Virus record (IMG/VR): IMGVR_UViG_3300003973_000003 | Coordinates: 1 to 45,338 of that record | Source of the DNA: a virus | Length of the DNA stretch: 45,338 nucleotides | Direction: 5' to 3' (one strand) | In this document: positions 677-44,984 of the stretch, piece after piece | Layout of the letters: each line of letters starts with the position of its first letter | Numbering within the stretch: position 1 is the stretch's first letter | Notes under the pieces: model-generated | What the model was told of the DNA's origin: nothing | The model's database searches: none | What the model saw: only the letters and a program-made list of their open reading frames with translations | Program-made: the position numbers and the translations under genes

Positions 677-1546
677 ATGGATATCAATGAACAAGCATCT
701 TTAAGTTTGATTGCGACTCGTATTAAGGCTGACGTTGACGCAATGGCTATCGCCCGGTATGCAGACGACCATCGCACGCACTTAGGTGCTTCGACAATCG
801 CCGAAGACTGTTTGAATTACCAATGGCTTACGTTCCGTTGGGCCGACAAGGAAGATTTGTCAGGACGCATGTACCGGCTGTTTCAACGCGGCCATCGTGA
901 GGAACCTATCGTTGTTGACTATCTCGAACATATCGGTTTTAAAGTTAGCACTGTTGACCCTGAAACGGGTATGCAATGGCGGGTTAGCGGCGTCAACGGG
1001 CATTACGGCGGCTCTTTGGATGGCATCGCAACTATGCCCACAAGTTACGGCTTCGGCGATCTTCGCGTCCTGTTGGAAGTCAAAACTAACGCTACAGGGT
1101 TGTCGTTCACGAAGTTGACGAACGACGGCGTAAAGATGCAGAAACCGACGCATTACGGTCAACAGTGTGCATATGGTTTCGAAAAGGGACTCACTCATTC
1201 GCTGTACGTGAACACGAATAAGAACGACGACGACATGCATATCGAAATCATTAAACTCGATTGGGAGTTAGGAAAGCGATTGCGCGAAAAAGCCGAACGT
1301 GTAATCAATTCGCAGGAACCGCTTGGCAAGATCGCAAAGTCATCGACACACAAACTTTGTAAGTATTGCAAGTTCGTACCTGTATGTCATGACGGTAAGA
1401 AGCCTGAAAAGTCTTGTCGTTCGTGCGTCAGTGCGCGGCCTGTCGAAAATAAAGAATGGTATTGCGACAAGTGGAATGCTATAATCCCGAACAAAGACGC
1501 TATCAAGTCGGGCTGTGATAGCTGGAACGCAATCATTAACGGGTAA
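677..1546 (+). CDS. PD-(D/E)XK exonuclease, Cas4/RecB-like, with a Cys cluster
   Basis: 289 aa. GSLDGIAT...LLEVKT gives the D...ExK core. C-X2-C-X5-C (CKYCKFVPVC) plus an N-terminal Cys (AEDCLNY) matches Cas4/AddB Fe-S nucleases. There is an extra CRSC...C...C tail. SD AGGGTG lies upstream. Confidence 0.8.
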   Translation: MDINEQASLSLIATRIKADVDAMAIARYADDHRTHLGASTIAEDCLNYQWLTFRWADKEDLSGRMYRLFQRGHREEPIVVDYLEHIGFKVSTVDPETGMQWRVSGVNGHYGGSLDGIATMPTSYGFGDLRVLLEVKTNATGLSFTKLTNDGVKMQKPTHYGQQCAYGFEKGLTHSLYVNTNKNDDDMHIEIIKLDWELGKRLREKAERVINSQEPLGKIAKSSTHKLCKYCKFVPVCHDGKKPEKSCRSCVSARPVENKEWYCDKWNAIIPNKDAIKSGCDSWNAIING

Positions 1547-1549
1547 AAC

Positions 1550-3205
1550 ATGGATTTACGCTGGTATCAGAACGGGGCTGTCGATTCGTTCTTTAACTTC
1601 CTCTGTACGAAAGAAGACCCTAGGGAAAACCCGCTTGCGGCACTCCCGACGGGTACGGGTAAGTCTCCTGTTCAGGCCGGTTTCATCAAAAGGGTTATCG
1701 AAGAATGGTCTAACCAGCGTTTCATGTGCCTGACTCACGTAAAAGAGTTAGTTGACCAAAACTCCCGAACCCTACGTCGGATGATGCCTAACGCACCTAT
1801 CGGCATTCATTCGGCAGGTTTGAAACAAAAGGATTTCGCGCAGCCTATTATATTCGGAGGTGCTGGATCGGTCGTTAAAAACATAGACATGTTCGGGCGT
1901 CGTGATATCTGCTTCGTTGACGAATGCCACATGATAGGCGGGGCGGATACCAAGACCTACGCCGCCATCATTGCAGGACTTCGCCGCAACAATCCTAAAA
2001 TTAGGTTCCTGGGGTTGACCGCTACGCCGTACCGTATGAAACAGGGTATGATTACCGACGGGGGCGACCCGTTCACCGAAATATGCTACGACATGACTAG
2101 CATGGAATCATTCAACCGTTTGTTGAATGAGGGTTTCATAGCCCCGTTGGTCGCACAACCAACGTCAGTAACTTACGACGTAAGTAGTGTTAGCGTGAGT
2201 GGCGGTGAGTTCAATAAAAGCGCATTGCAATCGCAGGTCGATAACGACATGCTTAATAGGGCGTGCGTCGAAGAAATGGTTGAACGGGCGCATAATCGCC
2301 ACTGCTGGCTAGTGTTTGCATCCGGTATCGACCATGCCGAACATATCGCCGAAATGCTGCAAGAGTACGGAATCAACGCGATGGCCGTACATTCAAAGCT
2401 TGACAGCGGCGAACGTGACAGACGGATTGCGTTGTTCAAGACGGGTAAGATTCGATGCCTTGTCAACAACGGCGTATTGACAACAGGATTCGACCATCCA
2501 CCAGTGGATTTTATCGGTATGATGCGTCCGACGTTATCGCCCGGTCTGTGGGTTCAAATGTTAGGCCGTGGTACACGAATCTATGATTGGTGGACTGAAT
2601 CGCTTTACATACCGGGCTTCGACTACACTAAATATAACTGCCTTGTGTTAGACTTCGCTGGTAACACGCAACGCCTGGGGCCGATCAACGATCCCAAAGT
2701 TCCGCGCAAAAAGGGACTGGGCGGCGGCGACATGCCGATTCGAGTATGCGACCGCTGTAAGACATATAACCACGCTTCGGCGCGATACTGTGGCGGTAGT
2801 CCTACCCCGTCGTTCGCCGGATGCGGATTAGAGTTCACGTTCGAAAGTAAACTGGAAGACACCAGCAGCACGGCCCCGTTGATTGCGAACTATGAAGCCC
2901 CGACGGTTGCATACTTTGACGTTCGAAAGGTAACGTATCAACTACACAGAAAAGACGGGTCGCCCGACTCAATGCGTGTATCGTATTACTGTGGGGAGCG
3001 AAAGCCGTTCGAAGTCTGGATTGCATTAGAAAGTACAAGAGGTAAACACGTAGCATCGCAATGGTGGAAACAGGCCGACGGGGATCGAGTCCCGCAAACA
3101 ACAGCCGAAGCGTTAGAGCGCGCTCCGTATATTAGGACGCCAAAGCGCCTTAGAGTTCAAACAAACTTAACCTATCCGAAAGTGTTGAATTATGAATACG
3201 AATAG
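1550..3205 (+). CDS. SF2 DNA helicase (DEAD/DEAH, ResIII-like) with a C-terminal zinc ribbon
   Basis: 551 aa. Motifs: LPTGTGKS (Walker A), VDECH (motif II), LTATP (III), QMLGRGTR (VI), CDRCKTYNHASARYCGG...GCG. Confidence 0.9.
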   Translation: MDLRWYQNGAVDSFFNFLCTKEDPRENPLAALPTGTGKSPVQAGFIKRVIEEWSNQRFMCLTHVKELVDQNSRTLRRMMPNAPIGIHSAGLKQKDFAQPIIFGGAGSVVKNIDMFGRRDICFVDECHMIGGADTKTYAAIIAGLRRNNPKIRFLGLTATPYRMKQGMITDGGDPFTEICYDMTSMESFNRLLNEGFIAPLVAQPTSVTYDVSSVSVSGGEFNKSALQSQVDNDMLNRACVEEMVERAHNRHCWLVFASGIDHAEHIAEMLQEYGINAMAVHSKLDSGERDRRIALFKTGKIRCLVNNGVLTTGFDHPPVDFIGMMRPTLSPGLWVQMLGRGTRIYDWWTESLYIPGFDYTKYNCLVLDFAGNTQRLGPINDPKVPRKKGLGGGDMPIRVCDRCKTYNHASARYCGGSPTPSFAGCGLEFTFESKLEDTSSTAPLIANYEAPTVAYFDVRKVTYQLHRKDGSPDSMRVSYYCGERKPFEVWIALESTRGKHVASQWWKQADGDRVPQTTAEALERAPYIRTPKRLRVQTNLTYPKVLNYEYE

Positions 3206-3440
3206 TCTTGTCCAACTTGGGGTTTCCAAAGAAAGGGCGGAATTGATGGTTTCCGTTCAAATGTCGTTTCAGCGCGACTTAATGCGGCGCGGTAATTGGC
3301 AGTCGTGTTTGAACTGTCTGAACTTCGCTCCAGGCAACGGTAAGAGTGTGGGGCCGAAATGTGAGGTTGCCGGGGTACTCCCGCCACCTGACGTAATCGT
3401 GTTCGGTTGCGAGAAACACGAAGACGACATTCCATTTTAG
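3192..3440 (+). CDS. Small zinc-ribbon protein ending in EDDIPF (SSB C-terminal-tip-like)
   Basis: 82 aa. CLNC...KCEV...GCEKH gives four Cys. The C-terminus ...KHEDDIPF resembles the proteobacterial SSB tip DDDIPF. The ORF overlaps the helicase stop by 14 nt. Confidence 0.6.
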   Translation: MNTNSLVQLGVSKERAELMVSVQMSFQRDLMRRGNWQSCLNCLNFAPGNGKSVGPKCEVAGVLPPPDVIVFGCEKHEDDIPF

Positions 3441-3448
3441 AGGTAATT

Positions 3449-4468
3449 ATGGCTACTAAAAATGTAGGGCGTTCACGTGCTGTATCTAAAAAGAACGCAA
3501 TTGCCGCGCCGGGTTTGGTTGCGGCCTTGGCGTTTGTAAGTGTTGCACAACGCGCAAAGGGTCTAACGTTTCAAACTCACGTACGCATGCAACGGGGTCA
3601 ACTTTTGGCGTGTGACGGGCTTGTTACGGCTGGCCACCCAATCGAGGAAAATTTAGATGCATGCCCACAATCGGCCGTGTTCGCGGTCGCACTTAGCAAG
3701 TGTGTTGACACGTTGACGCTTACGGTCGGCGACGATTCGAAAGTCCACGTTGCATCCGGCAAATTCAAGGCTAAGATTCCTTGCGCTAACCAGGAAGAAA
3801 TGCAAGAGTGTCGTCCAGACCCTAACGTTCACGCTATAGGTGAGGGTTTCCGCGAATCCCTGGCCGCTGCCGCAATGCTGGCATCCGAAGGGGCAACGGA
3901 CTTAGTTTGCGGAAGCGTACTTGTGACGGCAAATACTGTAATCGGGACGAATCGTTTCACCATGATCGAGCATTGGCATGGTATGCGTCTTCCCGATTGT
4001 GGAATGGTAGTGCCGAAAGCCAGTTGCGTAGCTCTTGGTAAAATCGTCGGAACGCTGGTAGGGTTCGGTTATAACCACGAAGCGAAAACATGTACGTTCT
4101 GGTTTGAAAACGGTTCGTGGCTCAAAACTCAATTGATGGAAAACAAGTGGCCGAACACTACGAAAATGCTTGAGTCGGCGCATGAAGCATGGCCAGTCCC
4201 TGACGACCTGTTCGAAGGTGTTCGCTCAATCATGGCCATAGGCGACGATGACATTATCCGTTTCGAACCAAGTATGATAAGATGCGGGGGCGCTAGTAGC
4301 GAAGGGACGTATGAAGTTGAAACCGGAATCGACGGCCGCGCTTTGAACGGGAAATATCTTATCGCCCTGGCCAAGTACATCGAAACGTTCGACTATATGT
4401 CAGACCACTTAAAAGCGACATTCCGTGGCGCGAATTGCCGGGGGCTGATCGCAGCATACAAGGCGTAA
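3449..4468 (+). CDS. Putative sliding clamp (DnaN beta-like)
   Basis: 339 aa from ATG 3449, with SD agagg 8 nt upstream. Patterns such as VASGKFKAKIPCANQEEM and MVVPKASCVALGKIV resemble DnaN. The gene sits between the helicase and the polymerase. Confidence 0.55.
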   Translation: MATKNVGRSRAVSKKNAIAAPGLVAALAFVSVAQRAKGLTFQTHVRMQRGQLLACDGLVTAGHPIEENLDACPQSAVFAVALSKCVDTLTLTVGDDSKVHVASGKFKAKIPCANQEEMQECRPDPNVHAIGEGFRESLAAAAMLASEGATDLVCGSVLVTANTVIGTNRFTMIEHWHGMRLPDCGMVVPKASCVALGKIVGTLVGFGYNHEAKTCTFWFENGSWLKTQLMENKWPNTTKMLESAHEAWPVPDDLFEGVRSIMAIGDDDIIRFEPSMIRCGGASSEGTYEVETGIDGRALNGKYLIALAKYIETFDYMSDHLKATFRGANCRGLIAAYKA

Positions 4469-4469: not shown

Positions 4470-6596
4470 ATGTTCTTTACAGACGAACAATTAGCCCGCA
4501 ACCCACGGGCTAAACAGAAACTAGCGAAAGCAGATTTCGTACCTAAGAAGCTGAAATATTTTGATACGGTTGAAATACCGTATCAAGAGTTCAGCGATAT
4601 GACACTGCTTTCGGTTCGCGGTTGTACTCTTATCTACGATATCGAGTGCTACCCTAACTATTTCCTAGCCGCGTTCAAGTGTCCGAAAACCCGATTGGTA
4701 GTCACGTTCGAGCGTTCGCCCGATGCCGACTTTGATCGGGACAAACTCGTATGGGTACTTAACAACTTTGAGTTGGTAGGTTTCAATACCCGTAAGTACG
4801 ATGAATTAATGGCGTGGCTTGCTGTTTGGGGTTCGACCAATGAACAGCTAAAGTACGCATCCGATACCCTTATTACCGTTGACGGAATGTCAGGCCCGAA
4901 GCTGGCTAAGGAAATGGGGGTAAAGATTCCGAAGACGAATCAAATCGATTTGATCGAGGTCGCCCCTCTTCGCGCCTCACTCAAGACGTATGCGGGCCGT
5001 ATGCACGCGCCGCGTATGCAAGACTTGCCGTACGATCCGGCGTTCCCGTTAAGTCGCGCCCAGGCCCGCGTAGTGCGTTTCTACTGTATCAATGACCTAG
5101 ACAATACCATTCTGCTGTGGAAAGACCTGTTACCGCATCTTAGATTGCGCGTCCAGCTTTCCGAAGAGTACGGCCAGGATTTGCGGTCACGTTCCGATGC
5201 GCAGATTGCCGAACACGTATTGACGGCCGAATGCGAAAAGATTAACGGCTACTTTGCGAAGCGTCCGATTATCAAGCCGGGTACGTGTTACAAGTATCAA
5301 CCTCCCCCGTTTATTCAGTTCGCAACACCGGAATTGCAAGCGATTTTCCGAAACATATGTGAAGCCGATTTCGTCATATCCGAAAAGGGTCAACCGAAAT
5401 GTTCGTACCTCAAGGGTTTGAAAGTACGTATCGGCGCAAGCGTGTACAAAATGGGCGTGGGCGGTCTGCATAGTAGTGAAAAGGCTACGGTACACTACGC
5501 CCGCGACGGATGGTTGTTAATTGATCGTGACGTAGCCAGTTACTATCCAGCTATCATTTTGAACAACGGTTTCTTCCCTAAGCATCTTAAAGAAACGTTC
5601 CTGCAAGTGTACCGCAGTATTGTAGATCGTCGCTTGCGTGCTAAAGGATTAATGAAGTCGTCCGACTTGTCGGTAGCCGAAACGAACGCGATCATTTCTG
5701 AGTCGCTAAAGATTACGATTAACGGGTCATTCGGAAAGCTTGGTTCGAAATGGTCGGCTCTGTATTCTCCCGACTTGTTAATTCAGGTAACTTTGACCGG
5801 CCAGCTTGCCTTGCTTATGTTAATCGAAGCCCTGCATAATGTGGGCATCAATACTGTATCGGCCAACACTGACGGTATTGTGATTAAGGTTCACGAAAGC
5901 GCGTACGACGAACTTAATCGCATCGTAGGTCTTTGGGAAAAACATACCAAGTTCGAAACCGAAGAAACGCAATATTCAGCAGTATTTAGCCGTGACGTTA
6001 ACAACTATATGGCTATTAAAAAGTACTACGATAAGAAGGTGAAACAATGGACGACAACATATCCCGAATTGAACCATAAAGGGGTGCCGTTCAAAACGTC
6101 CGATAAGGTTAAAGGTAAGGGGGTATTCGGCGAAACGACATTGAAGAAACAACCCACCAATGAGATATGCGCAAAGGCGGTTGCCGAATTTCTGCTTAAC
6201 GGGACGAGCATTGCCCACACTATCCAGGCATGCAAGGCTTTGTCCGATTTCATCACCGTTAAGAGCGTCAAAGGCGGGGCCGAAAAAGACGGGTGGTATC
6301 TAGGTAAGGCGATCCGATGGTATTACGGTCGCGGTATGCGGGGTACTATTAATTACGTTAAGAACGGCAATACGGTAGGTAATTCGGAAGGTGCGACACC
6401 GTGTATGGATTTACCGGAAGTATTCCCAAGTGACGTTGATTACGATTGGTACATCAATAACGCCGAAGGTATGCTAAAGTCGATGGGGTATTATGGTGTA
6501 GCCAAAGAAGCCACCGCGTTCGATCTGTTTACAAGTGCTAATGTGGAAGACGAACACGAAGAGGAAGACGAAGAGGAAGAATCTTTAGAGTGGTAA
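4470..6596 (+). CDS. DNA polymerase, family-B-like, with a 3'-5' exonuclease domain and an acidic C-terminal tail
   Basis: 708 aa. Exo motifs: YDIECYPNYF, FNTRKYDELM, YCINDLD. Polymerase motifs: DVASYYPAII (DxxSLYPS-like), KITINGSFGKLG, SANTDGIVI (DTD-like). The C-terminus reads AFDLFTSANVEDEHEEEDEEEESLEW. Confidence 0.9.
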   Translation: MFFTDEQLARNPRAKQKLAKADFVPKKLKYFDTVEIPYQEFSDMTLLSVRGCTLIYDIECYPNYFLAAFKCPKTRLVVTFERSPDADFDRDKLVWVLNNFELVGFNTRKYDELMAWLAVWGSTNEQLKYASDTLITVDGMSGPKLAKEMGVKIPKTNQIDLIEVAPLRASLKTYAGRMHAPRMQDLPYDPAFPLSRAQARVVRFYCINDLDNTILLWKDLLPHLRLRVQLSEEYGQDLRSRSDAQIAEHVLTAECEKINGYFAKRPIIKPGTCYKYQPPPFIQFATPELQAIFRNICEADFVISEKGQPKCSYLKGLKVRIGASVYKMGVGGLHSSEKATVHYARDGWLLIDRDVASYYPAIILNNGFFPKHLKETFLQVYRSIVDRRLRAKGLMKSSDLSVAETNAIISESLKITINGSFGKLGSKWSALYSPDLLIQVTLTGQLALLMLIEALHNVGINTVSANTDGIVIKVHESAYDELNRIVGLWEKHTKFETEETQYSAVFSRDVNNYMAIKKYYDKKVKQWTTTYPELNHKGVPFKTSDKVKGKGVFGETTLKKQPTNEICAKAVAEFLLNGTSIAHTIQACKALSDFITVKSVKGGAEKDGWYLGKAIRWYYGRGMRGTINYVKNGNTVGNSEGATPCMDLPEVFPSDVDYDWYINNAEGMLKSMGYYGVAKEATAFDLFTSANVEDEHEEEDEEEESLEW

Positions 6597-9533: not shown

Positions 9534-9826
9534 TAATAAATCCCATATGTCAATTCTGCCGCAATGGTTCCATCGGCAAGAGGTGGTGGCGACCATACAA
9601 TCGAGTTGCCCACAATAGACACTCGGCATATTTCCAGCGTGGTATCGAACGCGCTACTATAGCCGTTTGTTACCGTTATCCAGGGACGACCGTTAGCGAA
9701 TCCAGGGATGCTAACCGAACCCGCATTCGGGCCGAAGGTTAGCGTCCCTAATATGCGGCAAAACTTATCAGTAATGCCGCATATCTTTAATCCACGGGCG
9801 TCGAAAACTTCTAACCCTTGTGGCAT
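9533..9826 (-). CDS. Hypothetical tail-associated protein
   Basis: 97-aa ORF translationally coupled to the neighbouring tail genes. Confidence 0.55.
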   Translation of the reverse strand: MPQGLEVFDARGLKICGITDKFCRILGTLTFGPNAGSVSIPGFANGRPWITVTNGYSSAFDTTLEICRVSIVGNSIVWSPPPLADGTIAAELTYGIY

Positions 9827-9836: not shown

Positions 9837-12800
9837 TTAGAAAATACCCATGCGTACCCGCATTACGCCGTTGCCGTCGAATACCGTGATAAGCCGGTCT
9901 GTTATTGTCAGATACCCGTCGCCGTTGTTTGCGCCGGTCATCGTCATTGTACCCGCTTTATCGAGCTTCCATCGCGGTTGATTGTTGGCCCCTAGTGCTG
10001 ACGCCTCAATAGTGTTACCGATTTTGGCGTTCACGATTGAACCGTCCTGTATGATTGCCGAATTCATGAACACTTGGCCACCTTGAACAATGAACGGGAA
10101 TCGACTACTGTTCGGGGTGTTCGGGTCAATGATCGCAACACGGGACGCCGCCAACAGTATTTGAGATTCAATCGTAGTGCCGCTAGTGTTTTCTACACCA
10201 ACACCGATACCGGCCAAGTAATGCCGACCGTCAACAGTTAGTTGCGTTTTAATGGTGTACATTGCTGCGAGTTCGCTTACCAACGCTTCGACTTCGGCAC
10301 TAGCCCCGCCGCCGCTATTGATCTTTTCAACAAGTTCGTGGAACAGTTGCGTTTCTTTAATTTTGCCGGTAAGCGTGTCGAGAATCTTAGCTGCATCTGC
10401 GCTTGCTGTTCCAGCTATGGCAAGACCGTTGTTAAAATACGGGCCAGGACGTCCGGCCTTATCGATTACACGCGCCCAATAGTAGACAACCTCACTTGCC
10501 GACCTGTTCGTATGAACGTAATTGTCGGCAGGATACGGCAATTGAACGAGGCGTAACGCGTTGGTCAGGCTATTTGACGCTGACGCATAGATTTCGATGT
10601 TTTCGGCCATCGTCTGCGCACCGTCGGCGTACGTCCAGCGCAACCCGATTGCGAACAGTTCGGACGACGGGACGAAGGTTGCGAGGCGACATGTGGGCAA
10701 CGTCGTAGCCCTGATTTCGCCATGCCATGTCGCCCACGGCCCAGGTGTTCGCCCTACGCCCCGAACCCGCACCGACCACATACCGGGCGACATGTTCGAA
10801 GTGAGCGACGGTTCGCCGTTTGTACCAAGTGCGGCCCATCCGTCCGAACCATCAAGGCGGATTTCAAAATCGTAATAGATCGCCCCGATAGCGGGACTGG
10901 CTACAATATTCTGTACACCCATTTCGAATGTATCGAACACTTGAACAGTCGCAACGATTGGGGCGGTCGGGATCGTCGGCAAGTTCGATTCAGGCCCAGG
11001 CGGCGGCACGTTACCGCCGTATTCCGCACTGTGTACACTGTCTGCGTAATTGATACATGTAATGTTCACCATTCCGTCACTGGTAGGCGTCGCTGACGTA
11101 ATAAGAGCAAGGATACCTTGTCGGTCAGTAGGGCCGCATTGATATGTCGTGTAATCTTCCCGAATACCGTCGGATATGGAGATAGTTGCAAGTACTGCCG
11201 CCGATTCGTCAATCCGTGCGCCCCATTCGTTTTTGTCCGAACTTAACGACGTCGCCGCCACCATTCGGAACGGCCCTAACGAGCTACCGTTCTTTTTACG
11301 GAACGCTATTACATGCGACTGGCCGTCAGTGAACGGGATAGGTTCAGTAGTTCTAAGCACCCCTGTTGTTTTATCAAGAGACAACACGCGACCGAAGTAC
11401 CCCCATTGCGGTACGTCGTGTGAAATACGGGTGAGGCTGTTATAGTACGGAACCAAACCGGCGCTATGTGTTTGGAACGAAATGTTACGGCGACGGTCGC
11501 GGTTAGCAGCGGCCATGCTGATACCTTCGCGCCATGCTTGCTTGCGGTCGGTACAGCCTTGTAACGTGACGTTGTACGGCTTTAGTTCTGTCGAACCGGG
11601 TAAGACACATTTGATTGTTGCAGGTTCCCATGTTTCACCGTCGATGTATTCCATTACGATATGGTCGGGGGTATCCATGTCGTCAAAGTTATACACAGCA
11701 CGGAACGAGTCTGCAATCATGTTCGAAGGCTGGAACATCGATTCGGGAATAGTCTTGGCTTCGTCACGAACGAAGTCGATAACACCGGCGTAATAAATCG
11801 GAGTTGCGCGACCTACTCGGAGAATTCTAGTGAGTGCGTCCCAGAATTGAATCGTTGTATCAAACACCCCGTTAAAGCCGTCATCACGAGTTGCCCACAC
11901 TTGAGCCAGGGTCGCCAGGGCTTGAATATTGAAACGGTCGGTTGTCAAACCACGGCCGTATACTGGGTTACGGATAGCGTCCGCCGCGATCCACGCGGGG
12001 TTGTCAGATTCGATCAAGCCCGACCATCCGTTCACGGCGTCCCATTTCTGAACTAACCCGGTTGACACGACAGAGAATTTACGCGCTGTTGTGGAATTCA
12101 GAACGTTCGTTGCTTTCATCATTACAGCTATCATCGTTACGTTCGGATACGTAACGTTGCTTGTGACGTACCCGCGCATCGCAAGCCATTGCGTCATTTC
12201 AACGGTGGTATCGTTAGCCGCTTCGGGCGAAACACGACGACCCTGTACCCGGTAACGGGCTTCGGGTACGCTGACTTTGTAAGACTTGTATTGCGGCGTC
12301 GGCGTCGCCATGCTGACGGTATCGCGCAACAGGGTTTTCCACGCGCCGATAGGGCTACCCAGTACGTCGATTTCTTGGTATTCGAATTCGAACGTAACCG
12401 AGTGCGTTTTAGTATTCCCGTTCTTTTCGTCAATGGTGCGCAACCCTTGCGGGAAACAAATATCAAGGCCGATAAAGTTCGTCGTGGAACCTGCGGCCGA
12501 TACGTTGAACGGGCCTAGTGTAGTGAATGACGGACTATTCGGGCCGTACATGGTCAAGTTCTGAACACCCGATGACGTTATCACGTTATCGGGGAATAAC
12601 GTAACTTTGCCACCCGGACGAATGATTTCTGTCTTAGCTTCCGCGAAATCGGCAATGTTTGTTCCATCAACGTAAATGTTCTTTACTGTTGCTTCGCCTA
12701 GAGTAAGCGCGAACAACTGGTACAGGTACTGTTCGTTACCTTGATATTCGGTGTACGGTTGACTAGCCAAGTCGGGGAACGTACGCATTGTTCCATAAAC

Positions 12801-13298: not shown

Positions 13299-13681
13299 TA
13301 TTTCAACCTATAATATTTTGCGTTACTGAACCCGATGGCACGTAGTCTGCTGCCGTTTGTCCATATGACCCCGACACCTTCCAGGGCGTGAAGTACCCCG
13401 CCATGAACGTAGATGCCCACATGCGGGGCTGTCCCTCCCCTTAGCAGAACGGCGTCGCCGTCTACGGGGTCAATGACGTTACACCAATCACCGCCCCTTA
13501 ACTTCATTCGAAACAGTTCTGCGCACTCTTCGGGGCATTCGATATCAACGACCGGCATTGAAACGTTGAAATACTTTCGTTCCACATGAACCAATAAGCC
13601 CCAACAGTTAAAACTATTGGGGCCGAGTGCGCCGTTTTCGTACGGAATACCGACATATTCGGCTACGTCTTCGGGCGTCAT
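13298..13681 (-). CDS. NlpC/P60-family tail protein (lambda gpK-like)
   Basis: 127 aa. Catalytic-type Cys in FNCWGLL and His in APHVGIYV. The start overlaps the L-like stop and the stop overlaps the J-like start. Confidence 0.8.
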   Translation of the reverse strand: MTPEDVAEYVGIPYENGALGPNSFNCWGLLVHVERKYFNVSMPVVDIECPEECAELFRMKLRGGDWCNVIDPVDGDAVLLRGGTAPHVGIYVHGGVLHALEGVGVIWTNGSRLRAIGFSNAKYYRLK

Positions 13682-14216: not shown

Positions 14217-15032
14217 CTATTCATAGTAACCAACGTAACCGGGTAGCACGTATCCGGCCGCGACATAATCATTGATAACGACACTGTGTTCAATGAATTC
14301 AGTAAGATTATATATCGGTTTGTCGCTAGTCTCCAATGAAAGCTGCGCCCTGAACCACGACGACAGAGAATCAATGCGGGGTTGTCCCGCGAACCGAGTT
14401 CGAACTAGGGTTCGGCCCTGGCCATTCTCGAACGGGAATAGAAAAGTCGAATTTCCACCGTACGTCGTGTTGTCGTAAAAGTTCCTGAATTCACCGAACT
14501 GTTGTAGACTCAAGATTACGCTACCGCTGAACGGGGTGACGTCATCGTGAAAACGCTTACGCATCTGCGGGACGCCTTCAAGTTCCGAAGTGATTATTCC
14601 CGACCGGCTAGTATACGAATAATCGTCGCGCTCCAATGTGGGCAGCGTGATAGGCCATACTGGAATCGTGTTAGGTTGCGCCGCTGGTGCGTTGACCAGT
14701 GTTTCGACTGTAATAGACACGTTCCACATGTTACCCCTTCGGACGACTGCGATTTCGCCGCTAGTCAGTCTACATACGGTAGGGAATCCTATAATGGGAA
14801 CCGTGAACGCTTCGCCAGTCCTGAACACTTGATACTCAAACCACGCTTCGAACAGGCGCAGTTGTTCGTCATCGAGTAGCCATGCCAACTTCATGCCAAA
14901 CGGGGTTTTGCCATAAACGCGGCGGTTCAACATGTGGCCGTCATCCATTCTAGGATTCTTACGCTTTAAAGCGGGGCCAGCGTTGAACCCCTCGCGTTGC
15001 ACTGGTGGCAACGTTGAGGGGAACACTTTCAT
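14217..15032 (-). CDS. Minor/distal tail protein (gpM position); appears to be two tandem related halves
   Basis: 271 aa immediately after the TMP. Both halves share a pattern of the form ...L..Q...F..(W/F)(F/Y)......G...F..P... Confidence 0.6.
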   Translation of the reverse strand: MKVFPSTLPPVQREGFNAGPALKRKNPRMDDGHMLNRRVYGKTPFGMKLAWLLDDEQLRLFEAWFEYQVFRTGEAFTVPIIGFPTVCRLTSGEIAVVRRGNMWNVSITVETLVNAPAAQPNTIPVWPITLPTLERDDYSYTSRSGIITSELEGVPQMRKRFHDDVTPFSGSVILSLQQFGEFRNFYDNTTYGGNSTFLFPFENGQGRTLVRTRFAGQPRIDSLSSWFRAQLSLETSDKPIYNLTEFIEHSVVINDYVAAGYVLPGYVGYYE

Positions 15033-20187: not shown

Positions 20188-20210
20188 GTTGTAACTCCTA
20201 ATGTGGGTAT

Positions 20211-21811: not shown

Positions 21812-22270
21812 CTACTCCTTATTTGTTTCGTCGTATTGGAATTCGGTTACGACATTCAACCGATAAAACATGTCTTCTTGCGGCAATTCATTTATTCGGC
21901 TGTTGCGATATACTATCGCGCATTCCGATTGCCAATTTCTGAATTCGGCCTGTATTGCTTGCGCAATTGCTTCGCCACTTTCGATTATTTCGTCGTCGCC
22001 TTTAGGCATGAATATCTGAACGACCAATAACCCGCTGACAGTATAACGCCTTTGACCCGGTTTGCCCACATTAGTACTAAGGGTTGTTTGTTCCGTGTCG
22101 GCCGTGTGAATGGTGGCGCGCAGCCAAAGAATGTTTGACGGCTTATAGGGTTCCATCAAGCCCTGATAATAGAGCGCCGGTACAACGGGGCGTCGGGCAG
22201 GGTTCGAATCGTTAACCTTAGTAATTCGCCCGTACATTTCGTCCCGCGCTTCGTTACGTGTAGCACTCAT
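21812..22270 (-). CDS. Tail terminator (DUF4128 / gpU-like)
   Basis: 152 aa. The pattern ILWLRATIHTADTEQTTLS...RRYTVSGLLVVQIFMPKGDD is typical of the family. It lies immediately upstream of the major tail gene. Confidence 0.65.
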   Translation of the reverse strand: MSATRNEARDEMYGRITKVNDSNPARRPVVPALYYQGLMEPYKPSNILWLRATIHTADTEQTTLSTNVGKPGQRRYTVSGLLVVQIFMPKGDDEIIESGEAIAQAIQAEFRNWQSECAIVYRNSRINELPQEDMFYRLNVVTEFQYDETNKE

Positions 22271-30867: not shown

Positions 30868-31048
30868 CGCTAACCTTTCTGTTCTGGTTTGCGGTTGCTT
30901 CGGCCAATTCGATATCTTTATTGGCCTTGTCAACCGCGATCTTGTTTTCGGCCTGAACGACCCCGCTGTTCTTTCCGACTTTAAAAACGGCAAACATCGC
31001 CCCGATTACTGCAATGATGCCCACAATAAGCCCTGCGATGGTTTCCAT
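30791..31048 (-). CDS. i-spanin (Rz-like)
   Basis: 85 aa from the internal ATG 31048, which overlaps the endolysin stop (TGATG). The N-terminal TM is ETIAGLIVGIIAVIGAMFAVF, followed by a charged coiled coil. Confidence 0.8.
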   Translation of the reverse strand: METIAGLIVGIIAVIGAMFAVFKVGKNSGVVQAENKIAVDKANKDIELAEATANQNRKVSDAKAEISKADDDDVISRLRDDWSRD

Positions 31049-33217: not shown

Positions 33218-33429
33218 GGGTTTGCCTTTTCGAATTTAATGTCGGCTTCCAAAGCAGCGATGATTGCCGCGTCGTCTTCGTCGTCCATACTCATAAGGAA
33301 CGATTCCACCTTTTGAGGCGTGTTCATGTGGGCACATTTGACAGGAACCCAGTCGTTCAAGCTGTCGGCGTCGTGCGGGAGCATCACCCTGATTACAACA
33401 CCACTCGGAAGCCTAACATTCGTTTGCAT
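33214..33429 (-). CDS. Hypothetical protein
   Basis: 71-aa ORF, coupled, in the same orientation as the operon. Confidence 0.5.
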   Translation of the reverse strand: MQTNVRLPSGVVIRVMLPHDADSLNDWVPVKCAHMNTPQKVESFLMSMDDEDDAAIIAALEADIKFEKANP

Positions 33430-33461: not shown

Positions 33462-34064
33462 TTATGCCGGATACACTTTAGGGCTGTCAAGATCGATTTC
33501 GAGGTATTCGAGTAAAATATCCCGTGCATGAATCCAGCCGAAGCAAACTACACATGCGTACCCGGCTTCTTTCAGATCGGCAATCATAGTTACCTGTTCG
33601 GGCGAAAGATCGGCCATCGTGCCATTCTTACGTTTCATTTCAATGAACAGACCGCCGTAGATGATACTGTTGAACTGTTTCATGTGAGCCAGGAACAGAT
33701 CAGGAACGCCTTTCTTGACGCCTTCGGCCTTAGCCTGACATGCAGCCTCGATTGATCGTTCACCACCGTTGGGAGTTGCCCACAATCGGCGCAATGCGGG
33801 TGCCAGTCCGTTGCGACTGATAGCATTGGCCCAGGCCATCAACGCCGCCTGTTCGCCGTGTTCTGTCCCTTTTGCGCAAATGTCTTTCGGCAGAATCTTT
33901 CCGCCCGTCCATTCGCCCCTTAGTGCTGCCCGCAGTACATGCGTGGTAACGTCGGTTACGTCGTCCAGGTCTTCGCCGGTCATCATTTCGGCGGCTTGTT
34001 TCTTATCACACGCGACGTACGATTCGGAATTAGGGTGGTATAACAAGTGAGTGTAATTCGGCAT
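33462..34064 (-). CDS. VRR-NUC domain nuclease
   Basis: 200 aa. EHGEQAALMAWAN..., GVKKGVPDLFL, GGLFIEMKRKNGTMADLSPEQ..., LKEAGYACVVCFGW match the PD-(D/E)XK VRR-NUC pattern. Confidence 0.8.
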   Translation of the reverse strand: MPNYTHLLYHPNSESYVACDKKQAAEMMTGEDLDDVTDVTTHVLRAALRGEWTGGKILPKDICAKGTEHGEQAALMAWANAISRNGLAPALRRLWATPNGGERSIEAACQAKAEGVKKGVPDLFLAHMKQFNSIIYGGLFIEMKRKNGTMADLSPEQVTMIADLKEAGYACVVCFGWIHARDILLEYLEIDLDSPKVYPA

Positions 34065-35587: not shown

Positions 35588-35623
35588 TACTCCTATTAGA
35601 TGCCCACATTAGGGCCGGGGTGC

Positions 35624-38562: not shown

Positions 38563-38607
38563 GATGTTTCCTTTCAATGATGCCCACACTAGGCGGGCAG
38601 GGTTGCG

Positions 38608-39610: not shown

Positions 39611-39991
39611 TTAATTGTCGAAAGTTTGCAACGTGGTGAATCGTTTCGCCGGTATGTGTGTTCGCCCGTCGATTAGCGCCCTGGCTATTCGGTGCCAGCC
39701 GTCCATGATATAGCCGTCGGCGTTGACGATGACGGGTTTAGTGATATCCACGCTGCCCACACGAATCGCATGATGCGCGAGACTGTACGGGGTCAGTGCG
39801 TCCAGGCCGAACGGTGTACAGCCGATATGCACACTGCGAACGTCCATGTCGTACACTTCAAGACCTTCGGCGAGTTCGATCAAGCGTTCGACTGTGACCA
39901 TGCCGTTACCGACAGGACAGTGGTAGTAGTTGTTTGCTGGCGTGATTACTTCAAACTCAATCGGCCCCATGTTACGCAGTCGCTTAGACAT
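39611..39991 (-). CDS. ParB/sulfiredoxin-like N-terminal (nuclease) domain protein
   Basis: 126 aa from ATG 39991 (the ORF-track start at 40000 is GTG). GYIMDGWHRIARALIDGRTHIPAKRF matches the DGxHR core of ParB-like domains. Confidence 0.6.
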   Translation of the reverse strand: MSKRLRNMGPIEFEVITPANNYYHCPVGNGMVTVERLIELAEGLEVYDMDVRSVHIGCTPFGLDALTPYSLAHHAIRVGSVDITKPVIVNADGYIMDGWHRIARALIDGRTHIPAKRFTTLQTFDN

Positions 39992-40244: not shown

Positions 40245-40305
40245 GATGTTTCGTCCTTTCTAACCCTGTTGTCGAAGTATAAGAGGGTCGTCAATGGCTT
40301 TTGAG

Positions 40306-40322
40306 TAGCTAAGTGTTTGATT
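40306..40322. repeat. Left arm of the 17-bp inverted repeat (tagctaagtgtttgatt)
   Basis: The reverse complement of 40465-40481 matches at 16 of 17 positions. Confidence 0.85.
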
Positions 40323-40357
40323 TTAATAATATATATATATATATAATATATATAATA
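40320..40357. repeat. 38-bp tract of 100% A/T with (TA)n runs
   Basis: attttaataatatatatatatatataatatatataata. Confidence 0.95.
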
Positions 40358-40439
40358 CTAGATCACTTTCTATTCGGTTCTAGGAGTTCGGCGATAAGCA
40401 TCCCGCAGATCATGGACACTATCCCATTCTCCTAAAACC

Positions 40440-40455
40440 CCTTATATCCTTATAT
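40440..40455. repeat. Tandem 8-mer, two copies (ccttatat)
   Basis: Read directly from the sequence. Confidence 0.85.
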
Positions 40456-40464
40456 TCTGTTTCG

Positions 40465-40481
40465 AATCAATCACTTAGCTA
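40465..40481. repeat. Right arm of the 17-bp inverted repeat (aatcaatcacttagcta)
   Basis: Pairs with 40306-40322. The arms are 142 bp apart. Confidence 0.85.
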
Positions 40482-40501
40482 TTATATTTGCTATTATATT
40501 T
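40478..40501. repeat. Tandem 12-mer, two copies (gctattatattt)
   Basis: Read directly from the sequence. Confidence 0.9.
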
Positions 40502-40502
40502 T

Positions 40503-40520
40503 GTTATACGCGTTATACGC
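40503..40520. repeat. Tandem 9-mer, two copies (gttatacgc)
   Basis: Read directly from the sequence. It abuts the primase stop codon. Confidence 0.9.
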
Positions 40521-40521
40521 G

Positions 40522-42969
40522 CTATCCTATCCCGAAAGCACGCGGAACCGTAATCATGAAACACTTAGCCGAACTGTTAAAACGCGTATGCGCTACCTGG
40601 GGACTGAGTTCGGAAATATCGCCACGTTCGCGGAATGTCTGCAACACGCGCTTGATCGCGTTCGTTGAACCTGCGCGGTCTTTGCGAAACGAGGATATAC
40701 CCTGCAATCGCCGAGACAGATAGCTATACGGAATCACACGTTCCGAATGCATACCCATTGCGACACCGTAACGTTCAACAGTCGAATACGGGGACATGAT
40801 GTACTCTTTGACTACACGCGTTGCGTCAAGTACTTGGTTCACTTCGTCCGAATTCGCGCCAACGCTACCATTGCTGAAACGAGCAAGCATGTTCCCGCAA
40901 TCGGCCCTGACGATGTTGATTGACCAGTGCGCTATTTCTGCTGTGATAACCGGCCTGAGATAGTTGCAGCCTACCGCGATAAGTGCGCCAAGTTTCATCG
41001 CCTTCAAGTGCGCCCGGTTCCACAAGTTCTTTGTCACCTCTTTGGCCATTTCGCCGTTGATCCGGTCGTCGCACTCTTCGTTTAGCTGGTCGTACATGTG
41101 GGCAGCTTCCGCCGTCTGTTCCACCGGAATAGCATCGTTGGCTGAATTGAGCATGATTGAGTGCGAACACAAGTCGCTGACAGCTTGCAGCAGGTTTTCA
41201 TCTGGAACCATCTTTGACGCGTTCTTATTGAGGCGCGGTCGCTTGCCGTGGTATTCGATCACAGTGAAGCGAGGTAACAGACCCTCCGTAATCATACCTT
41301 CGTCAAGACCTTCATAAAAACGTTCGGGCGTCGATTCTCCGAGTAGCGAATAGTTAGGCGAATCAATCACCGTTGTGTTTTTATCCGCGTCCGCGAAAAT
41401 TGACGGTCGAACAACGTCGTCTTTGCCCGATTTGTTGAACAGGTCAAGCATGGTACGCCGCAGTGCGATCTTATGGGGCGGCGCGTTCCGGTCGGTCATT
41501 TCCTGCAAGTAAATGCCGAATTCACCAACGACCGAAACGAACGAGTTTCGCCCTTTCGACATGAACTTAATCAGCGCTTGTGCACTGGCGACCTCTGACG
41601 GCCCTACGAAATCGTAAGCTCCGTTGACGCGGGTATTCACCCTGGCTAACAGTCGTTCAATACCTGACGCCAGGGATTCTTTGCCCGTACCCGTAGGGGC
41701 CAGCAACAGCAGGTACTGGTTAAGACCCGTCGCTGATATGTTGTATGACCGCCCGCACACGCCAGCCATCAAACCAAGGGCGGCAGTTAATGCGACTTCG
41801 GGAACAGGGCGCGGCGCAGCGCGGTAAATGAATTCGGCAATATCGCCGACAAGTCCAGGCGGCTTACTGTACACGTTACCTAAGCCTGTTGTCAGCGATT
41901 CGGGCGCGTCAAAGTCGCCCCCTGTCCCGTCGTCGTGAACGACCGTTACTGTCAAGTGGGCCGGTACGTTGGCGATTGCAATCGGGGGTGTTTGCATGTT
42001 TTCAATCCTTTCTGTGTTTTCCTGGCGGTTACGGGTAGCAGCAATTGCCGCTTCCAATTGGTTACGCATACCGTCGATATCTACCGGCGGCAACATGCGG
42101 TCGAACGACTTGTCAATCATGTAGTTGATATATGACTTCCCGCGAATGCGCGTCATCTTGTTCCGTTCACCCAATGGGGAATTCTGGAACAGGCGCGTAA
42201 TCTGTTCGCGGTTTTGCGTGTAGAACGCAATGATGTTCACGAACGCTAAGTCGGCTTCGGATTGCGACGGCCAACGTCCGCTTTCTCGCCAGTCGCCGGT
42301 AAGTTGGCGAACGGTTTCGGAGTTCGAAGCGTTCCAGCACATATCTATAATTTCTTGGTCGCTTTGGCGTTGCGGGGCGTTACCGTCGTACCCGGTCTTT
42401 TGTGGGCCGCCGCCAAGCTGATTCCAAAGGATTTGAGCGTTGCGCAGTAACAGATCGCTGCCCACAATAGTCCGTCGTCCGTCGTATACGTTGCCTGTCA
42501 TGGTCATGAAACGGGCGTCGCTATACATTTCGATAGACATGCGGCGACGACCATTCGGCAGGTTAATACCTTTCGTAACGATATGCATCCCATTACCCGA
42601 CGGTGAGATTTCAGAATAGCTATCGAAACCTTCGTAGATGCGGCGCTGTGTTTCCATTACGCCGTCCGGGTCGTCATACTTGAACGAGCCGTCGGGGTTG
42701 CGTTCGTACGCGTTGTCCATATCGATAATCATGTACGGGTTGTCTTTGTTCAGAACAATGCCGATGCCGTCACAAAGGTTGTGATTGAAACAGTTAACAG
42801 CTTCGGCAAACGTTCCCCAGGTGCTAGGGTCGTTCACGTTCGCACTCTTACCCGTTTTAGGGTCAAGTGGTACTTTTGTTGCTTTAACGTCCGGGTCTTC
42901 CTGTACTTTTCGCCATATCACCCAATGCGGGTACTCTTTCATTTCGTTAGGGATATTGTCAAAATTCAT
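40522..42969 (-). CDS. Bifunctional primase-polymerase (AEP) fused to a P-loop helicase
   Basis: 815 aa. The N-terminus has HWVIWR, IIDMDNA (DxD), SPSGNGMHIV and ARFMTMTGN. The central Walker A is LLLAPTGTGKES. Confidence 0.85.
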   Translation of the reverse strand: MNFDNIPNEMKEYPHWVIWRKVQEDPDVKATKVPLDPKTGKSANVNDPSTWGTFAEAVNCFNHNLCDGIGIVLNKDNPYMIIDMDNAYERNPDGSFKYDDPDGVMETQRRIYEGFDSYSEISPSGNGMHIVTKGINLPNGRRRMSIEMYSDARFMTMTGNVYDGRRTIVGSDLLLRNAQILWNQLGGGPQKTGYDGNAPQRQSDQEIIDMCWNASNSETVRQLTGDWRESGRWPSQSEADLAFVNIIAFYTQNREQITRLFQNSPLGERNKMTRIRGKSYINYMIDKSFDRMLPPVDIDGMRNQLEAAIAATRNRQENTERIENMQTPPIAIANVPAHLTVTVVHDDGTGGDFDAPESLTTGLGNVYSKPPGLVGDIAEFIYRAAPRPVPEVALTAALGLMAGVCGRSYNISATGLNQYLLLLAPTGTGKESLASGIERLLARVNTRVNGAYDFVGPSEVASAQALIKFMSKGRNSFVSVVGEFGIYLQEMTDRNAPPHKIALRRTMLDLFNKSGKDDVVRPSIFADADKNTTVIDSPNYSLLGESTPERFYEGLDEGMITEGLLPRFTVIEYHGKRPRLNKNASKMVPDENLLQAVSDLCSHSIMLNSANDAIPVEQTAEAAHMYDQLNEECDDRINGEMAKEVTKNLWNRAHLKAMKLGALIAVGCNYLRPVITAEIAHWSINIVRADCGNMLARFSNGSVGANSDEVNQVLDATRVVKEYIMSPYSTVERYGVAMGMHSERVIPYSYLSRRLQGISSFRKDRAGSTNAIKRVLQTFRERGDISELSPQVAHTRFNSSAKCFMITVPRAFGIG

Positions 42970-43166
42970 TGCTTACCTTTAGTCAGATACATATACAAGG
43001 TTTCAACACGGCATACGCCGGGTTCGGCTGAAACACCACGGGAGAATGAATGTAGCCAATGCAACTGTATCCCAGTGTCACGGGCAATCTGTTGCAGCGT
43101 GAGCGAACGCGGCCGGTTAATCAGGGCGTCACGCGTCATGTCACGCCAGGACGTTTGTGTTTGCAT
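42966..43166 (-). CDS. Small HTH DNA-binding protein (Cro/regulator-like)
   Basis: 66 aa. LTLQQIARDTGIQLHWLHSFSRG is an HTH pattern. It is the first gene of the leftward unit and has an ATGA overlap with the primase gene. Confidence 0.65.
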   Translation of the reverse strand: MQTQTSWRDMTRDALINRPRSLTLQQIARDTGIQLHWLHSFSRGVSAEPGVCRVETLYMYLTKGKQ

Positions 43167-43842: not shown

Positions 43843-43855
43843 AGGAGTGTCAACC

Positions 43856-44245
43856 ATGAGTAACAAGCACGACTTGAAAGGTCTGTTGCGTCGCCACAAT
43901 ATCACCGAAAGCGTGAGTAACGCAACGCAAAGCATCGAAAACGCAGTGCGCGAGGAACGCTTAAAAGCACTGGGGCCAATGGGTCGCCTCATGACCATGT
44001 TGCAGAATCCCAGTGTACCGGATGGCGTTAAAGTTGACCTGAAATCGGTCGATTCGTCTGTTCGCGCCCTGTCCGTTCTGCTGGACATGATTTCGGAACA
44101 AATCCCCGAAATCACCGACGCGCTGGAAGTCAAGCACCAGACAGCCAACGCTGGCGAAGAAAGTTTGATCGCCGGTCGCATCCTGTCCCGCTGGAAACAA
44201 ACGGCGAAATTTGTCGAACAGTTGAAACCGGCAAACGGCGGCTGA
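43856..44245 (+). CDS. Hypothetical protein
   Basis: 129 aa from ATG 43856 with SD AGGAG 8 nt upstream (the ORF-track start at 43847 is GTG). Confidence 0.65.
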   Translation: MSNKHDLKGLLRRHNITESVSNATQSIENAVREERLKALGPMGRLMTMLQNPSVPDGVKVDLKSVDSSVRALSVLLDMISEQIPEITDALEVKHQTANAGEESLIAGRILSRWKQTAKFVEQLKPANGG

Positions 44246-44246
44246 T

Positions 44247-44927
44247 ATGAACCAAAAAGACTTGCGCCCCGCTGGAACTTTCGCGCAGAATTACGGCGTG
44301 AAAATGCTGGCGTACGGGCCACCCGGCCAGGGTAAGACGCCCCTGATTAAAACAGCGCCACGCCCCGTCTTGCTGTTCACCGAACCCGGCATGTTGTCAA
44401 TGAAGGGTAGCGATGTACCGGCGTTCGAAGGCAACAACGTGAAACGCATTGACGAATTTTTCGAATGGGTTGAAAAGTCGAATGAGATTCGCAACTTTGA
44501 CACAATCGGGGTTGATTCCGTGTCTAACATGGCCGAAATCTTCCTCGCCGAAGAATTACCTAAGCAGCGTGACCCGCGTAAAGCTTACGGTAACATGTCA
44601 AACTGGGTAATGGCCCACTTGAATATGCTGTACTATATGAAACAGAAACACGCATATTTGATTGCGAAAGAAGCGCGTATTGACACGGGCGAATCTTCCG
44701 GGGTATGCTCTTATTTCCCAGGTAAAGATTTAAGCGTAAAGGTTCCGCATCTTTTCGACCTGATCGCCAGGGTAGCAAAGGCAACCGTACCCGGACAGCC
44801 GATGCCAGTATTAGCAATTCGCTGTGTAGGTAATGTGGTGGAACATGCCCGCGACCGTACCGGCAAATTGAACGAATTGGAACCGCCGAATTTGGCTAAC
44901 CTGTTCAACAAAGCAATGTCGAACTAA
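44247..44927 (+). CDS. Sak4-like RecA-fold ATPase (AAA_24 type ssDNA annealing / recombination protein)
   Basis: 226 aa. VKMLAYGPPGQGKTPL is the Walker A and IGVDSVSNM is Walker B-like. The pairing with a downstream DUF669-type gene is typical. Confidence 0.8.
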   Translation: MNQKDLRPAGTFAQNYGVKMLAYGPPGQGKTPLIKTAPRPVLLFTEPGMLSMKGSDVPAFEGNNVKRIDEFFEWVEKSNEIRNFDTIGVDSVSNMAEIFLAEELPKQRDPRKAYGNMSNWVMAHLNMLYYMKQKHAYLIAKEARIDTGESSGVCSYFPGKDLSVKVPHLFDLIARVAKATVPGQPMPVLAIRCVGNVVEHARDRTGKLNELEPPNLANLFNKAMSN

Positions 44928-44984
44928 ACGGCAACGCCCGCACCGTTCTAATGTGGGCAACCTTACAAATAGATTGGAAATATC

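Follow-up and report, generated by a model that had tools for sequence, protein, structure and literature searches.

A dispersed, evenly spaced octamer in a Loki-like siphophage genome and its relatives, a candidate template recognition site of the phage primase

IMG/VR virus record IMGVR_UViG_3300003973_000003 is a DNA stretch of 45,338 nucleotides (positions 1 to 45,338), hereafter called the window, which has a GC content of 51% and appears to be all, or nearly all, of the genome of a Loki-like siphophage not described before. This work concerns an octamer dispersed along that genome, TGCCCACA, which reads TGTGGGCA on the opposite strand, and its relation to the primase-helicase encoded by the same phage. 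One arm of the window carries the genes for a single-stranded DNA-binding protein, a Cas4-like exonuclease, an SF2 helicase, a clamp-like factor and a DNA polymerase. On the other strand lie the tail, head and terminase genes, followed by early genes, the primase-helicase gene and a small helix-turn-helix (HTH) gene. The polymerase is family-A-like and is encoded, together with the clamp-like factor, separately from the primase-helicase.

The nearest cultured relatives, with protein identities of 55-63%, are Escherichia phage Halfdan, Pseudomonas phage Pavpe01, Acinetobacter phages Loki and IMEAB3, and Achromobacter phage phiAxp-1. At the nucleotide level, the only match to the phage collection was 36 bp long and fell within the tape measure gene.

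An exact search revealed 25 copies of TGCCCACA/TGTGGGCA in the window, 17 with TGCCCACA on the plus strand and 8 on the minus strand, where about one copy would be expected, and the word ranks first among the over-represented octamers. An earlier note on this DNA, made from the sequence alone, had counted at least 24 copies; its coordinates were correct with a single exception, and one minus-strand copy had been overlooked (both are marked in Table 1). Dinucleotide shuffling predicts 1.15 copies (maximum 4), and Markov models of orders 0-4 predict 0.5-1.5. When synonymous codons were shuffled with all proteins kept (1000 runs), the mean was 6.3 copies, including 3 intergenic sites untouched by the shuffle, and the maximum 11, whereas shuffling of the codon order gave 4.1. 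The count thus stood up to the recount and to the Markov and codon-aware models by which the earlier note had proposed to check it, even the highest codon-aware value being far below 25.

In relation to the genes, the sense strand carries 9 sites and the antisense strand 13, the remaining 3 are intergenic, and all three reading frames are occupied, which agrees with the frame independence and the use of both coding orientations described previously. A coding artefact is ruled out as the source of the excess by the synonymous and codon-order shuffles and by the fact that orthologues do not keep the sites at the same positions (see below). As the codon-aware models fail to account for the count and the sites do not occupy conserved orthologue positions, selection acts on the DNA word rather than on a peptide, as had been proposed.

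The longer words reported to recur were all confirmed: GATGCCCACA is present seven times (six on the plus strand, one on the minus strand), GAGTTGCCCACA three times, TGCCCACAATCGGC twice, and TGCCCACATTAG three times on the plus strand and once on the minus strand. In the TGCCCACA orientation, G is found at position −2 in 16 of the 25 sites, −1 is not G, +8 is without G, +9 is T or G in every site, +10 is A in 13 and +11 is G in 14. On the opposite strand, the longer consensus reads approximately C-T-A-W-TGTGGGCA-W-C. No signal of local secondary structure was detected at the sites, as the minimum free energy of ±40 nt matches that of random windows (p=0.33).

Table 1. Octamer copies and associated features of the window; the strand of a site is the one on which TGCCCACA reads.
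Feature	Position	Strand	Description
Site	1035..1042	+	TGCCCACA on + = TGTGGGCA on −; within Cas4-like exonuclease gene
Site	3662..3669	+	TGCCCACA; within clamp-like processivity factor gene
Site	5840..5847	−	TGCCCACA on −, so TGTGGGCA reads on +; within DNA polymerase gene
Site	6212..6219	+	TGCCCACA; within DNA polymerase gene
Site	9607..9614	+	TGCCCACA; close to start of open reading frame (ORF) 8793-9629(−)
Site	10692..10699	−	TGCCCACA; within J-like central tail fibre gene
Site	11892..11899	+	TGCCCACA; within J-like central tail fibre gene
Site	13414..13421	+	TGCCCACA; within ORF 13298-13681(−)
Site	14637..14644	−	TGCCCACA; within ORF 14217-15032(−); absent from the earlier list
Site	15253..15260	+	TGCCCACA; within tape measure gene
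Site	17347..17354	+	TGCCCACA; within tape measure gene
Near-cognate	20202..20209	−	TGTGGGTA reads on +, good flanks (ctaaTGTGGGTA); in largest minus-orientation gap, 14637 to 23063
Site	22063..22070	+	TGCCCACA; given earlier as 22073
Site	23063..23070	−	TGCCCACA
Site	26125..26132	−	TGCCCACA; within head morphogenesis (MuF-like) gene
Site	26516..26523	+	TGCCCACA; within head morphogenesis gene
Site	29947..29954	+	TGCCCACA; within terminase large subunit gene
Site	31018..31025	+	TGCCCACA; intergenic
Site	33327..33334	−	TGCCCACA
Site	33777..33784	+	TGCCCACA; within VRR-NUC/resolvase-like gene
Site	35601..35608	+	TGCCCACA; intergenic or gene boundary
Site	38581..38588	+	TGCCCACA
Site	39754..39761	+	TGCCCACA
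Origin-like non-coding region	40245..40521		directly downstream of primase gene; (TA)n tract 40325-40360
Archaeo-eukaryotic primase (AEP) fused to helicase, candidate reader	40522..42969	−	815 aa; N-terminal PrimPol domain and NrS-1-type helix-bundle domain, then DUF3987/D5-like helicase region
Site	41097..41104	−	TGCCCACA; within primase-helicase gene
Site	42459..42466	+	TGCCCACA; within primase-helicase gene
Small HTH-like protein	42966..43166	−	66 aa; directly upstream of and overlapping primase gene; alternative candidate reader
Site	44952..44959	−	TGCCCACA; intergenic

The search of related phages that the earlier note had suggested showed that eight relatives, which infect seven host genera of the alpha-, beta- and gamma-proteobacteria, likewise have TGTGGGCA as their most over-represented octamer: Halfdan (E. 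coli, 20 copies), Pavpe01 (P. syringae, 18), Loki (Acinetobacter, 13), phiAxp-1 (Achromobacter, 14), Pfeifenkraut (Xanthomonas, 18), Eidolon (Sphingomonas, 24), AH03 (Erwinia, 18) and Kakheti25 (P. aeruginosa, 19). In Loki a shifted core, AATGTGGG (CCCACATT in the TGCCCACA orientation), reaches 20 copies, and in phiAxp-1 TGTGGGC (GCCCACA) reaches 26. A scan of IMG/VR with the primase alignment yielded 80 contigs whose primases are 40-49% identical, the closest to that of the window sharing 49% identity. About 75 of these contigs are at least 9 kb long; the word ranks first among their octamers in most of them, and in about 50, with GC contents of 0.34-0.58, the density of TGTGGGCA is no lower than 0.25 per kb.

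Phages that are more distantly related and share this primase type carry sister words, i.e. TGTGGTCA in PaMx25 (32 copies), TGTGGTTA in Seurat (38 copies) and TGTGGAC in the Microcystis phage Me-ZS1 (27 copies), and all lineage variants fit T-GTGG-N-Y-(A). Phages sharing a host may differ in this respect: of the two E. coli K-12 phages, Halfdan bears TGTGGGCA and Seurat TGTGGTTA, and of those of P. aeruginosa, Kakheti25 bears TGTGGGCA and PaMx25 TGTGGTCA. The word thus follows the phage lineage and not the host. We found no description of it for these phages in the literature available to us, the Loki genome paper included, and string searches for the octamers matched unrelated primer sequences only.

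The most informative property of the sites, overlooked in the earlier note, is their even spacing on each strand. In 11 genomes, the gaps between neighbouring sites of one strand have a coefficient of variation of 0.17-0.52, as compared with about 0.9 for random placement, and spacing on the richer strand is significantly even in all of them (P<=0.003 in 11/11). In the window, the richer orientation has one site per approximately 2.7 kb and the sparser one per approximately 5.7 kb, while in Halfdan the 12 richer-strand sites are 2.6-4.5 kb apart. Regularity is far stronger within each strand than when all sites are pooled, and the strands alternate more often than expected (combined runs-test z=6.8). 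The copies are dispersed near-evenly over the whole genome, and are not clustered within a few hundred base pairs in the manner of iterons.

The strand bias reported earlier is not significant in the window alone (17:8, p=0.11). It emerges, however, when genomes are oriented alike: in about 62% of the sites, TGCCCACA reads on the strand complementary to that of the structural genes (93:57 in the relatives, p=0.004; 169:100 over 11 genomes, p=3e-5). Plus- and minus-strand genes show the bias in the same direction, whereas GC/AT skew reverses with gene orientation, which rules out that it is a by-product of compositional skew.

The positions of the sites turn over among relatives, while their number and spacing are preserved. 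When the window sites were compared with the equivalent residues of orthologues in 8 relatives, a site was present in only about 10 of about 110 comparisons. Taken together, the per-strand regularity, the turnover and the global bias point to a strand-specific function at the DNA level that is tied to a global process such as replication.

Two further features of the arrangement were also noted in the window and the 11 genomes. Sparser-orientation sites fall late between richer-orientation ones (mean fractional position 0.58, Kolmogorov-Smirnov p=0.004). Among pairs less than 600 bp apart, 23 are of the '− then +' type and 10 of the reverse; in the window, the former include 5840/6212, 26125/26516 and 33327/33777.

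The word co-occurs with one type of primase, in 11 complete genomes and in about 50 of the about 75 contigs (see above). Two phages, BcepB1A and RcMcDreamy, share the polymerase, the Cas4-like exonuclease and the helicase, but their primases are unrelated or barely related, and no dispersed over-represented word was found in either of these only two negative controls; the word does not, in these two, accompany the other replication genes.

The primase-helicase of the window matches PHROG 3022 (E=2e-230) and the Pfam family DUF3987. Its residues 236-291 match Pfam PF22763, NrS1-1_pol-like_HBD (37.4 bits, cut-off 27.9), and residues 10-304 align with the NrS-1 N300 structures 6k9a, 6a9w and 7rr3 (E=2e-26). 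In all, 503 phage records contain an N300 homologue. The catalytic residues DxD and SxGxGxH are retained, and so is the R-x-K...Y of the helix-bundle domain (HBD). By Pfam, the PDB match and the conserved residues, the window genome thus encodes an HBD-containing AEP primase.

Among enzymes of this kind, NrS-1 PrimPol needs a template recognition sequence of 8 nt (PMC7102993). It recognises 5'-TTTGGTTA-3', and 5'-GTGA/GTGG-3' more efficiently; the HBD binds the site, and synthesis begins at the first base 5' of it (PMC8718748). The primase ORF904 of pRN1 requires 5'-GTG-3' (PMC8718748, PMC7102993). The GTG core of these characterised members is present in all template-strand variants of the dispersed word.

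Some variants may be linked to the HBD itself. When the HBD alone is considered, Me-ZS1 groups with PaMx25 and Seurat, in which the sixth word position is not G, and the rest of its primase is nearer to the TGTGGGCA group; in Loki, a very divergent HBD is found together with the shifted word. This attribution of word variants to the HBD is anecdotal.

Based on these observations, we suggest that the phage primase recognises TGTGGGCA on its template and that the genome retains the word as evenly spaced priming sites on both strands; on balance we lean towards this explanation. The HBD would bind TGTGGGCA on the single-stranded template, by analogy with NrS-1 PrimPol and pRN1 ORF904. Primer synthesis would begin at the invariant T, the base just 5' of the GTGG core, and would then run away from the word, so that the conserved flank would correspond to the first primer nucleotides, roughly 5'-A-W-T-A-G. 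On a single-stranded DNA template CTAATGTGGGCAAC, primers are predicted to start opposite the T 5' of GTGG. As so long a word would almost never occur by chance, the genome would be under selection to maintain the set, keeping evenly spaced words on both strands so that discontinuous synthesis could be primed everywhere. For forks that travel in the direction in which the structural genes are transcribed, the richer strand would then serve as the lagging-strand template.

The resemblance to NrS-1 extends beyond the homology over the whole PrimPol and HBD region and the shared Pfam domain. In both cases the word is unusually long (8 nt) with a GTG(G) core, and the invariant T and conserved flank of the window word agree with a start immediately 5' of the site. 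On the other hand, the NrS-1 repeats are clustered in about 300 bp, whereas the approximately 25 copies in the window are scattered at even intervals along both strands. In NrS-1, PrimPol also serves as the replicative polymerase, while the window phage has a separate polymerase and a clamp-like factor. The NrS-1 enzyme has also been characterised biochemically, whereas the primase of the window clade is known from sequence alone.

ORF904 of pRN1 is likewise an AEP primase fused to an SF3-type helicase, in which the HBD reads the template and the primer starts outside the motif, 5' of it. It differs in having a trinucleotide motif, for which no genomic enrichment is needed, and in belonging to an archaeal plasmid; the likeness is one of description and not of sequence comparison. 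T7 gp4, which reads 5'-(G/T)(G/T)GTC-3', is another phage primase-helicase, although of the DnaG/Toprim type; the 3' part of its site is recognised yet uncopied, and the copied part sets the primer sequence (PMC12839067). Five-base sites are abundant by chance, hence T7 sites have no known over-representation or spacing constraint.

Several points weigh against the priming explanation. We infer both the primase as the reader and priming as the function. When 81 primases were examined by Mantel tests, divergence in each of the three primase regions correlated with the distance between word profiles (r 0.43-0.53), and partial tests do not single out the HBD; since the three regions correlate about equally, the covariation is no better than that expected from shared phylogeny. 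The word is accompanied equally well by the adjacent HTH protein and by the C-terminal region of the helicase, and in a few contigs (L033, L061, L068, L076/77) no word stands out clearly even though a similar primase is encoded. Neighbouring sites lie as far as 4.7 kb apart on the richer strand and 8.4 kb apart on the sparser one, distances that are large for Okazaki fragments. If the enzyme primes at bare GTGG like NrS-1 PrimPol, the need for full octamers is not obvious.

The comparison with NrS-1 itself adds further difficulties. Its 8-nt site is reported inconsistently, as TTTGGTTA (PMC8718748) or within an oligonucleotide containing TTTGACCA (PMC7102993); this oligonucleotide ends in ...CCCGTTTGACCATT, and two genome copies are claimed for it, one per strand (PMC7102993). 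In the NrS-1 genome we found TTTGGTTA once, inside a repeat cluster, as the complement of TAACCAAA at 17198, and TTTGACCA four times in a single orientation, three near 17.0-17.6 kb and one at 20.6 kb. The published 8-nt site is therefore not dispersed in that genome; instead, a AAGTGTAACC iteron cluster lies beside the primase gene. In this cluster (17062-17370 of the Nitratiruptor phage NrS-1), 11 copies of AAGTGTAAC(C) in both orientations occupy about 300 bp directly downstream of the primase-polymerase gene. It looks like a replication origin, so that NrS-1's own GTG-containing repeats are clustered as an origin and are not dispersed.

The same primase-helicase might, alternatively, read the word as double-stranded DNA, in which case the copies would be dispersed sites for hexamer loading or origin-like sites, as are the octamer iterons for the alpha protein of phage P4. 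Such a role is consistent with the C-terminal D5/SF3-type helicase region, the clustered GTG-containing iterons beside the NrS-1 primase gene, the origin-like region at the corresponding place in the window and the weak phasing of opposite-strand sites (23 against 10 close pairs, see above). However, the repeats of the origin-like region, TAGCTAAGTGTTTGATT, differ in sequence from the dispersed word, P4-type iterons (ori, crr) are clustered rather than dispersed, and the fact that regularity is stronger per strand than for pooled sites argues for strand-specific reading of a single strand; altogether we regard duplex loading as unlikely. Slightly less probable still is the binding of another conserved phage protein, e.g. 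the small HTH protein encoded beside the primase, serving genome organisation, transcription control or protection. The HTH gene lies directly upstream of the primase gene in all word-bearing genomes examined, and a parallel exists in the stoperators of mycobacteriophage L5, about 25-30 dispersed asymmetric sites for a phage-encoded repressor. Stoperators, however, belong to a temperate phage, are mostly intergenic and are oriented with transcription, whereas 22 of the 25 window sites lie within ORFs, in both orientations to transcription (9 sense and 13 antisense) and in all frames. The per-strand regularity also speaks against this protein, no lysogeny module was seen in these phages, and RcMcDreamy has an HTH gene upstream of its unrelated primase and yet lacks the word. 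Of the earlier proposal that the copies are dispersed sites for a phage protein, the direction is thus retained, while the HTH and ParB-like proteins named as readers give way to the AEP primase-helicase as the best supported candidate.

The sites could also mark single-strand nicks of the kind known from T5, phiKMV-like phages and tf, which a phage nickase would introduce into virion DNA; to this candidate of the earlier note we still grant a small chance, similar to that of the HTH protein. Nick sites of these phages have a short asymmetric consensus, number about 5-14 per genome and are independent of coding. Phage tf, with 14 nicks at 5'-TACT/GTGAC-3' in 46 kb, shows a similar density and a GTG core (PMC3517423). 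The window encodes nucleases (VRR-NUC/resolvase-like and Cas4-like), and fragment ends left unsealed at priming sites could produce nicks, which would be compatible with priming. What such nicks have as their defining trait, confinement to one strand (14/14 in tf), is missing here: both strands are used in every genome, at about 62:38 (17:8 in the window). Opposite-strand sites only 20-55 bp apart (Loki 31752/31772, Seurat 18853/18908) would create fragile points if nicked, no nickase family co-varies with the word, and the Loki paper gives normal restriction patterns and does not mention nicks. The primase-helicase of tf is T7-type, DnaB-like and not an AEP; given this and its one-strand sites, tf was rejected as a link between nick sites and priming. 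It is very improbable that the word is a phage-encoded Chi-like signal that attenuates the phage SF2 helicase and Cas4/RecB-like exonuclease, directing the phage's own DNA to Sak4-type recombination while word-free host DNA is degraded. All word-bearing genomes do encode a Cas4-like exonuclease, an SF2 helicase and an AAA_24 (Sak4-like) ATPase, and an asymmetric word evenly spread on both strands would suit permuted ends; but BcepB1A and RcMcDreamy have the homologous exonuclease and helicase and no dispersed word, and the word family fits the known primase specificity and no known Chi. To our knowledge, there is no precedent for a phage-encoded Chi reader, nor do we know of Chi sites that are evenly spaced. 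Finally, a host signal (Chi, DNA uptake sequence, DnaA box or FtsK-orienting polar sequence, KOPS) gained by host adaptation is next to inconceivable. Chi, read by RecBCD or AddAB, and uptake sequences are indeed over-represented asymmetric octamers, Chi being orientation-dependent and acting at the DNA level, and TGTGGGCA loosely resembles a reversed DnaA box (TGTGGATAA). Nevertheless, it departs from the DnaA consensus TTWTNCACA (reverse TGTGNAWAA) at two required positions, and E. coli Chi is GCTGGTGG. Chi is set by the host enzyme and is host-specific, whereas the window word is constant across hosts and varies by phage lineage. The finding, in a scan that covered phage genomes, of one word across seven host genera of three proteobacterial classes, and of different words on one host (Halfdan and Seurat; Kakheti25 and PaMx25), excludes host Chi, uptake sequences, the DnaA box and comparable host signals, so neither the host Chi nor the host uptake or architecture signal considered in the earlier note could be maintained.

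Primase recognition sites are already known as a kind of element, as is long recognition by an HBD primase in NrS-1. What appears to be new is the genome-wide enrichment, the even spacing per strand, the turnover of positions at conserved density, and a lineage-specific family of words across a very large phage clade. If priming is indeed the function, this would be, as far as a limited literature search can tell, the first known case of priming sites individually visible in a genome sequence, selected for number and even spacing and co-evolving with the phage primase across hundreds of phages. The start points of discontinuous synthesis would then be predictable from sequence, and the richer strand would give a simple handle on the direction of replication. 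The variants GGGCA, GGTCA, GGTTA and GGAC would form a natural specificity series for the study of DNA reading by AEP helix bundles.

A bolder and clearly more doubtful proposal is that a large siphophage clade (Lokivirus, Septimatrevirus, Queuovirinae and many uncultured relatives) has hard-coded its lagging-strand starts, that its primase, through its long specificity, primes essentially only the phage's own DNA, and that the same junctions may persist as physical discontinuities in packaged DNA. Continuous selection would then maintain a lattice of starts at even distances on each strand, an Okazaki-fragment map could be read from the sequence, and priming would be restricted to self as opposed to non-self DNA. 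In practical terms, the word is a strong lineage marker for recognising these phages and their contigs. Sites could be destroyed unawares if Halfdan, Loki, Kakheti25 or Seurat-like therapeutic phages were synonymously recoded or had their genomes engineered.

The genes and repeats around the primase gene also merit description. The small HTH protein has a weak match to PHROG 6223; the position of its gene is kept in relatives, and its counterparts in Kakheti25, Loki, Me-ZS1, AH03 and Pfeifenkraut are annotated as HTH or DNA-binding. In the origin-like region, inverted copies of TAGCTAAGTGTTTGATT at 40306-40322 and 40465-40481 flank the (TA)n tract, a third, partial copy lies at 40556-40569, just within the primase gene, and two short direct repeats, GCTATTATATTT and GTTATACGCG, occur twice each. 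The region lies outside the dispersed word set and probably belongs to the same replication system. Its repeats account for the excess of TATATATA in the k-mer tables of the window, and a similar excess of TATATATA was observed in contigs L032, L080, L083 and L086.

Other repeated words were encountered in the genomes compared. In Burkholderia phage BcepB1A, the over-represented nonamers CACGGGCGG and GGGCGCACC (36219-36411 and 43887-43985) are tandem coding repeats with periods of 9-21 bp inside two ORFs, and were for this reason rejected as a dispersed signal. The contig IMGVR_UViG_3300020045_001964 (L082) contains, besides 10 copies of TGTGGGCA, 18-19 copies of GCCAGAGC/CCAGAGCC in 22 kb, where 0.5 would be expected. 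In Me-ZS1, about 10 copies of TTATGAACAG in both orientations are gathered at 48324-48936, approximately 1.4-2 kb from the primase and HTH genes on the circular map; this cluster is origin- or operator-like and differs from the dispersed TGTGGAC of that phage.

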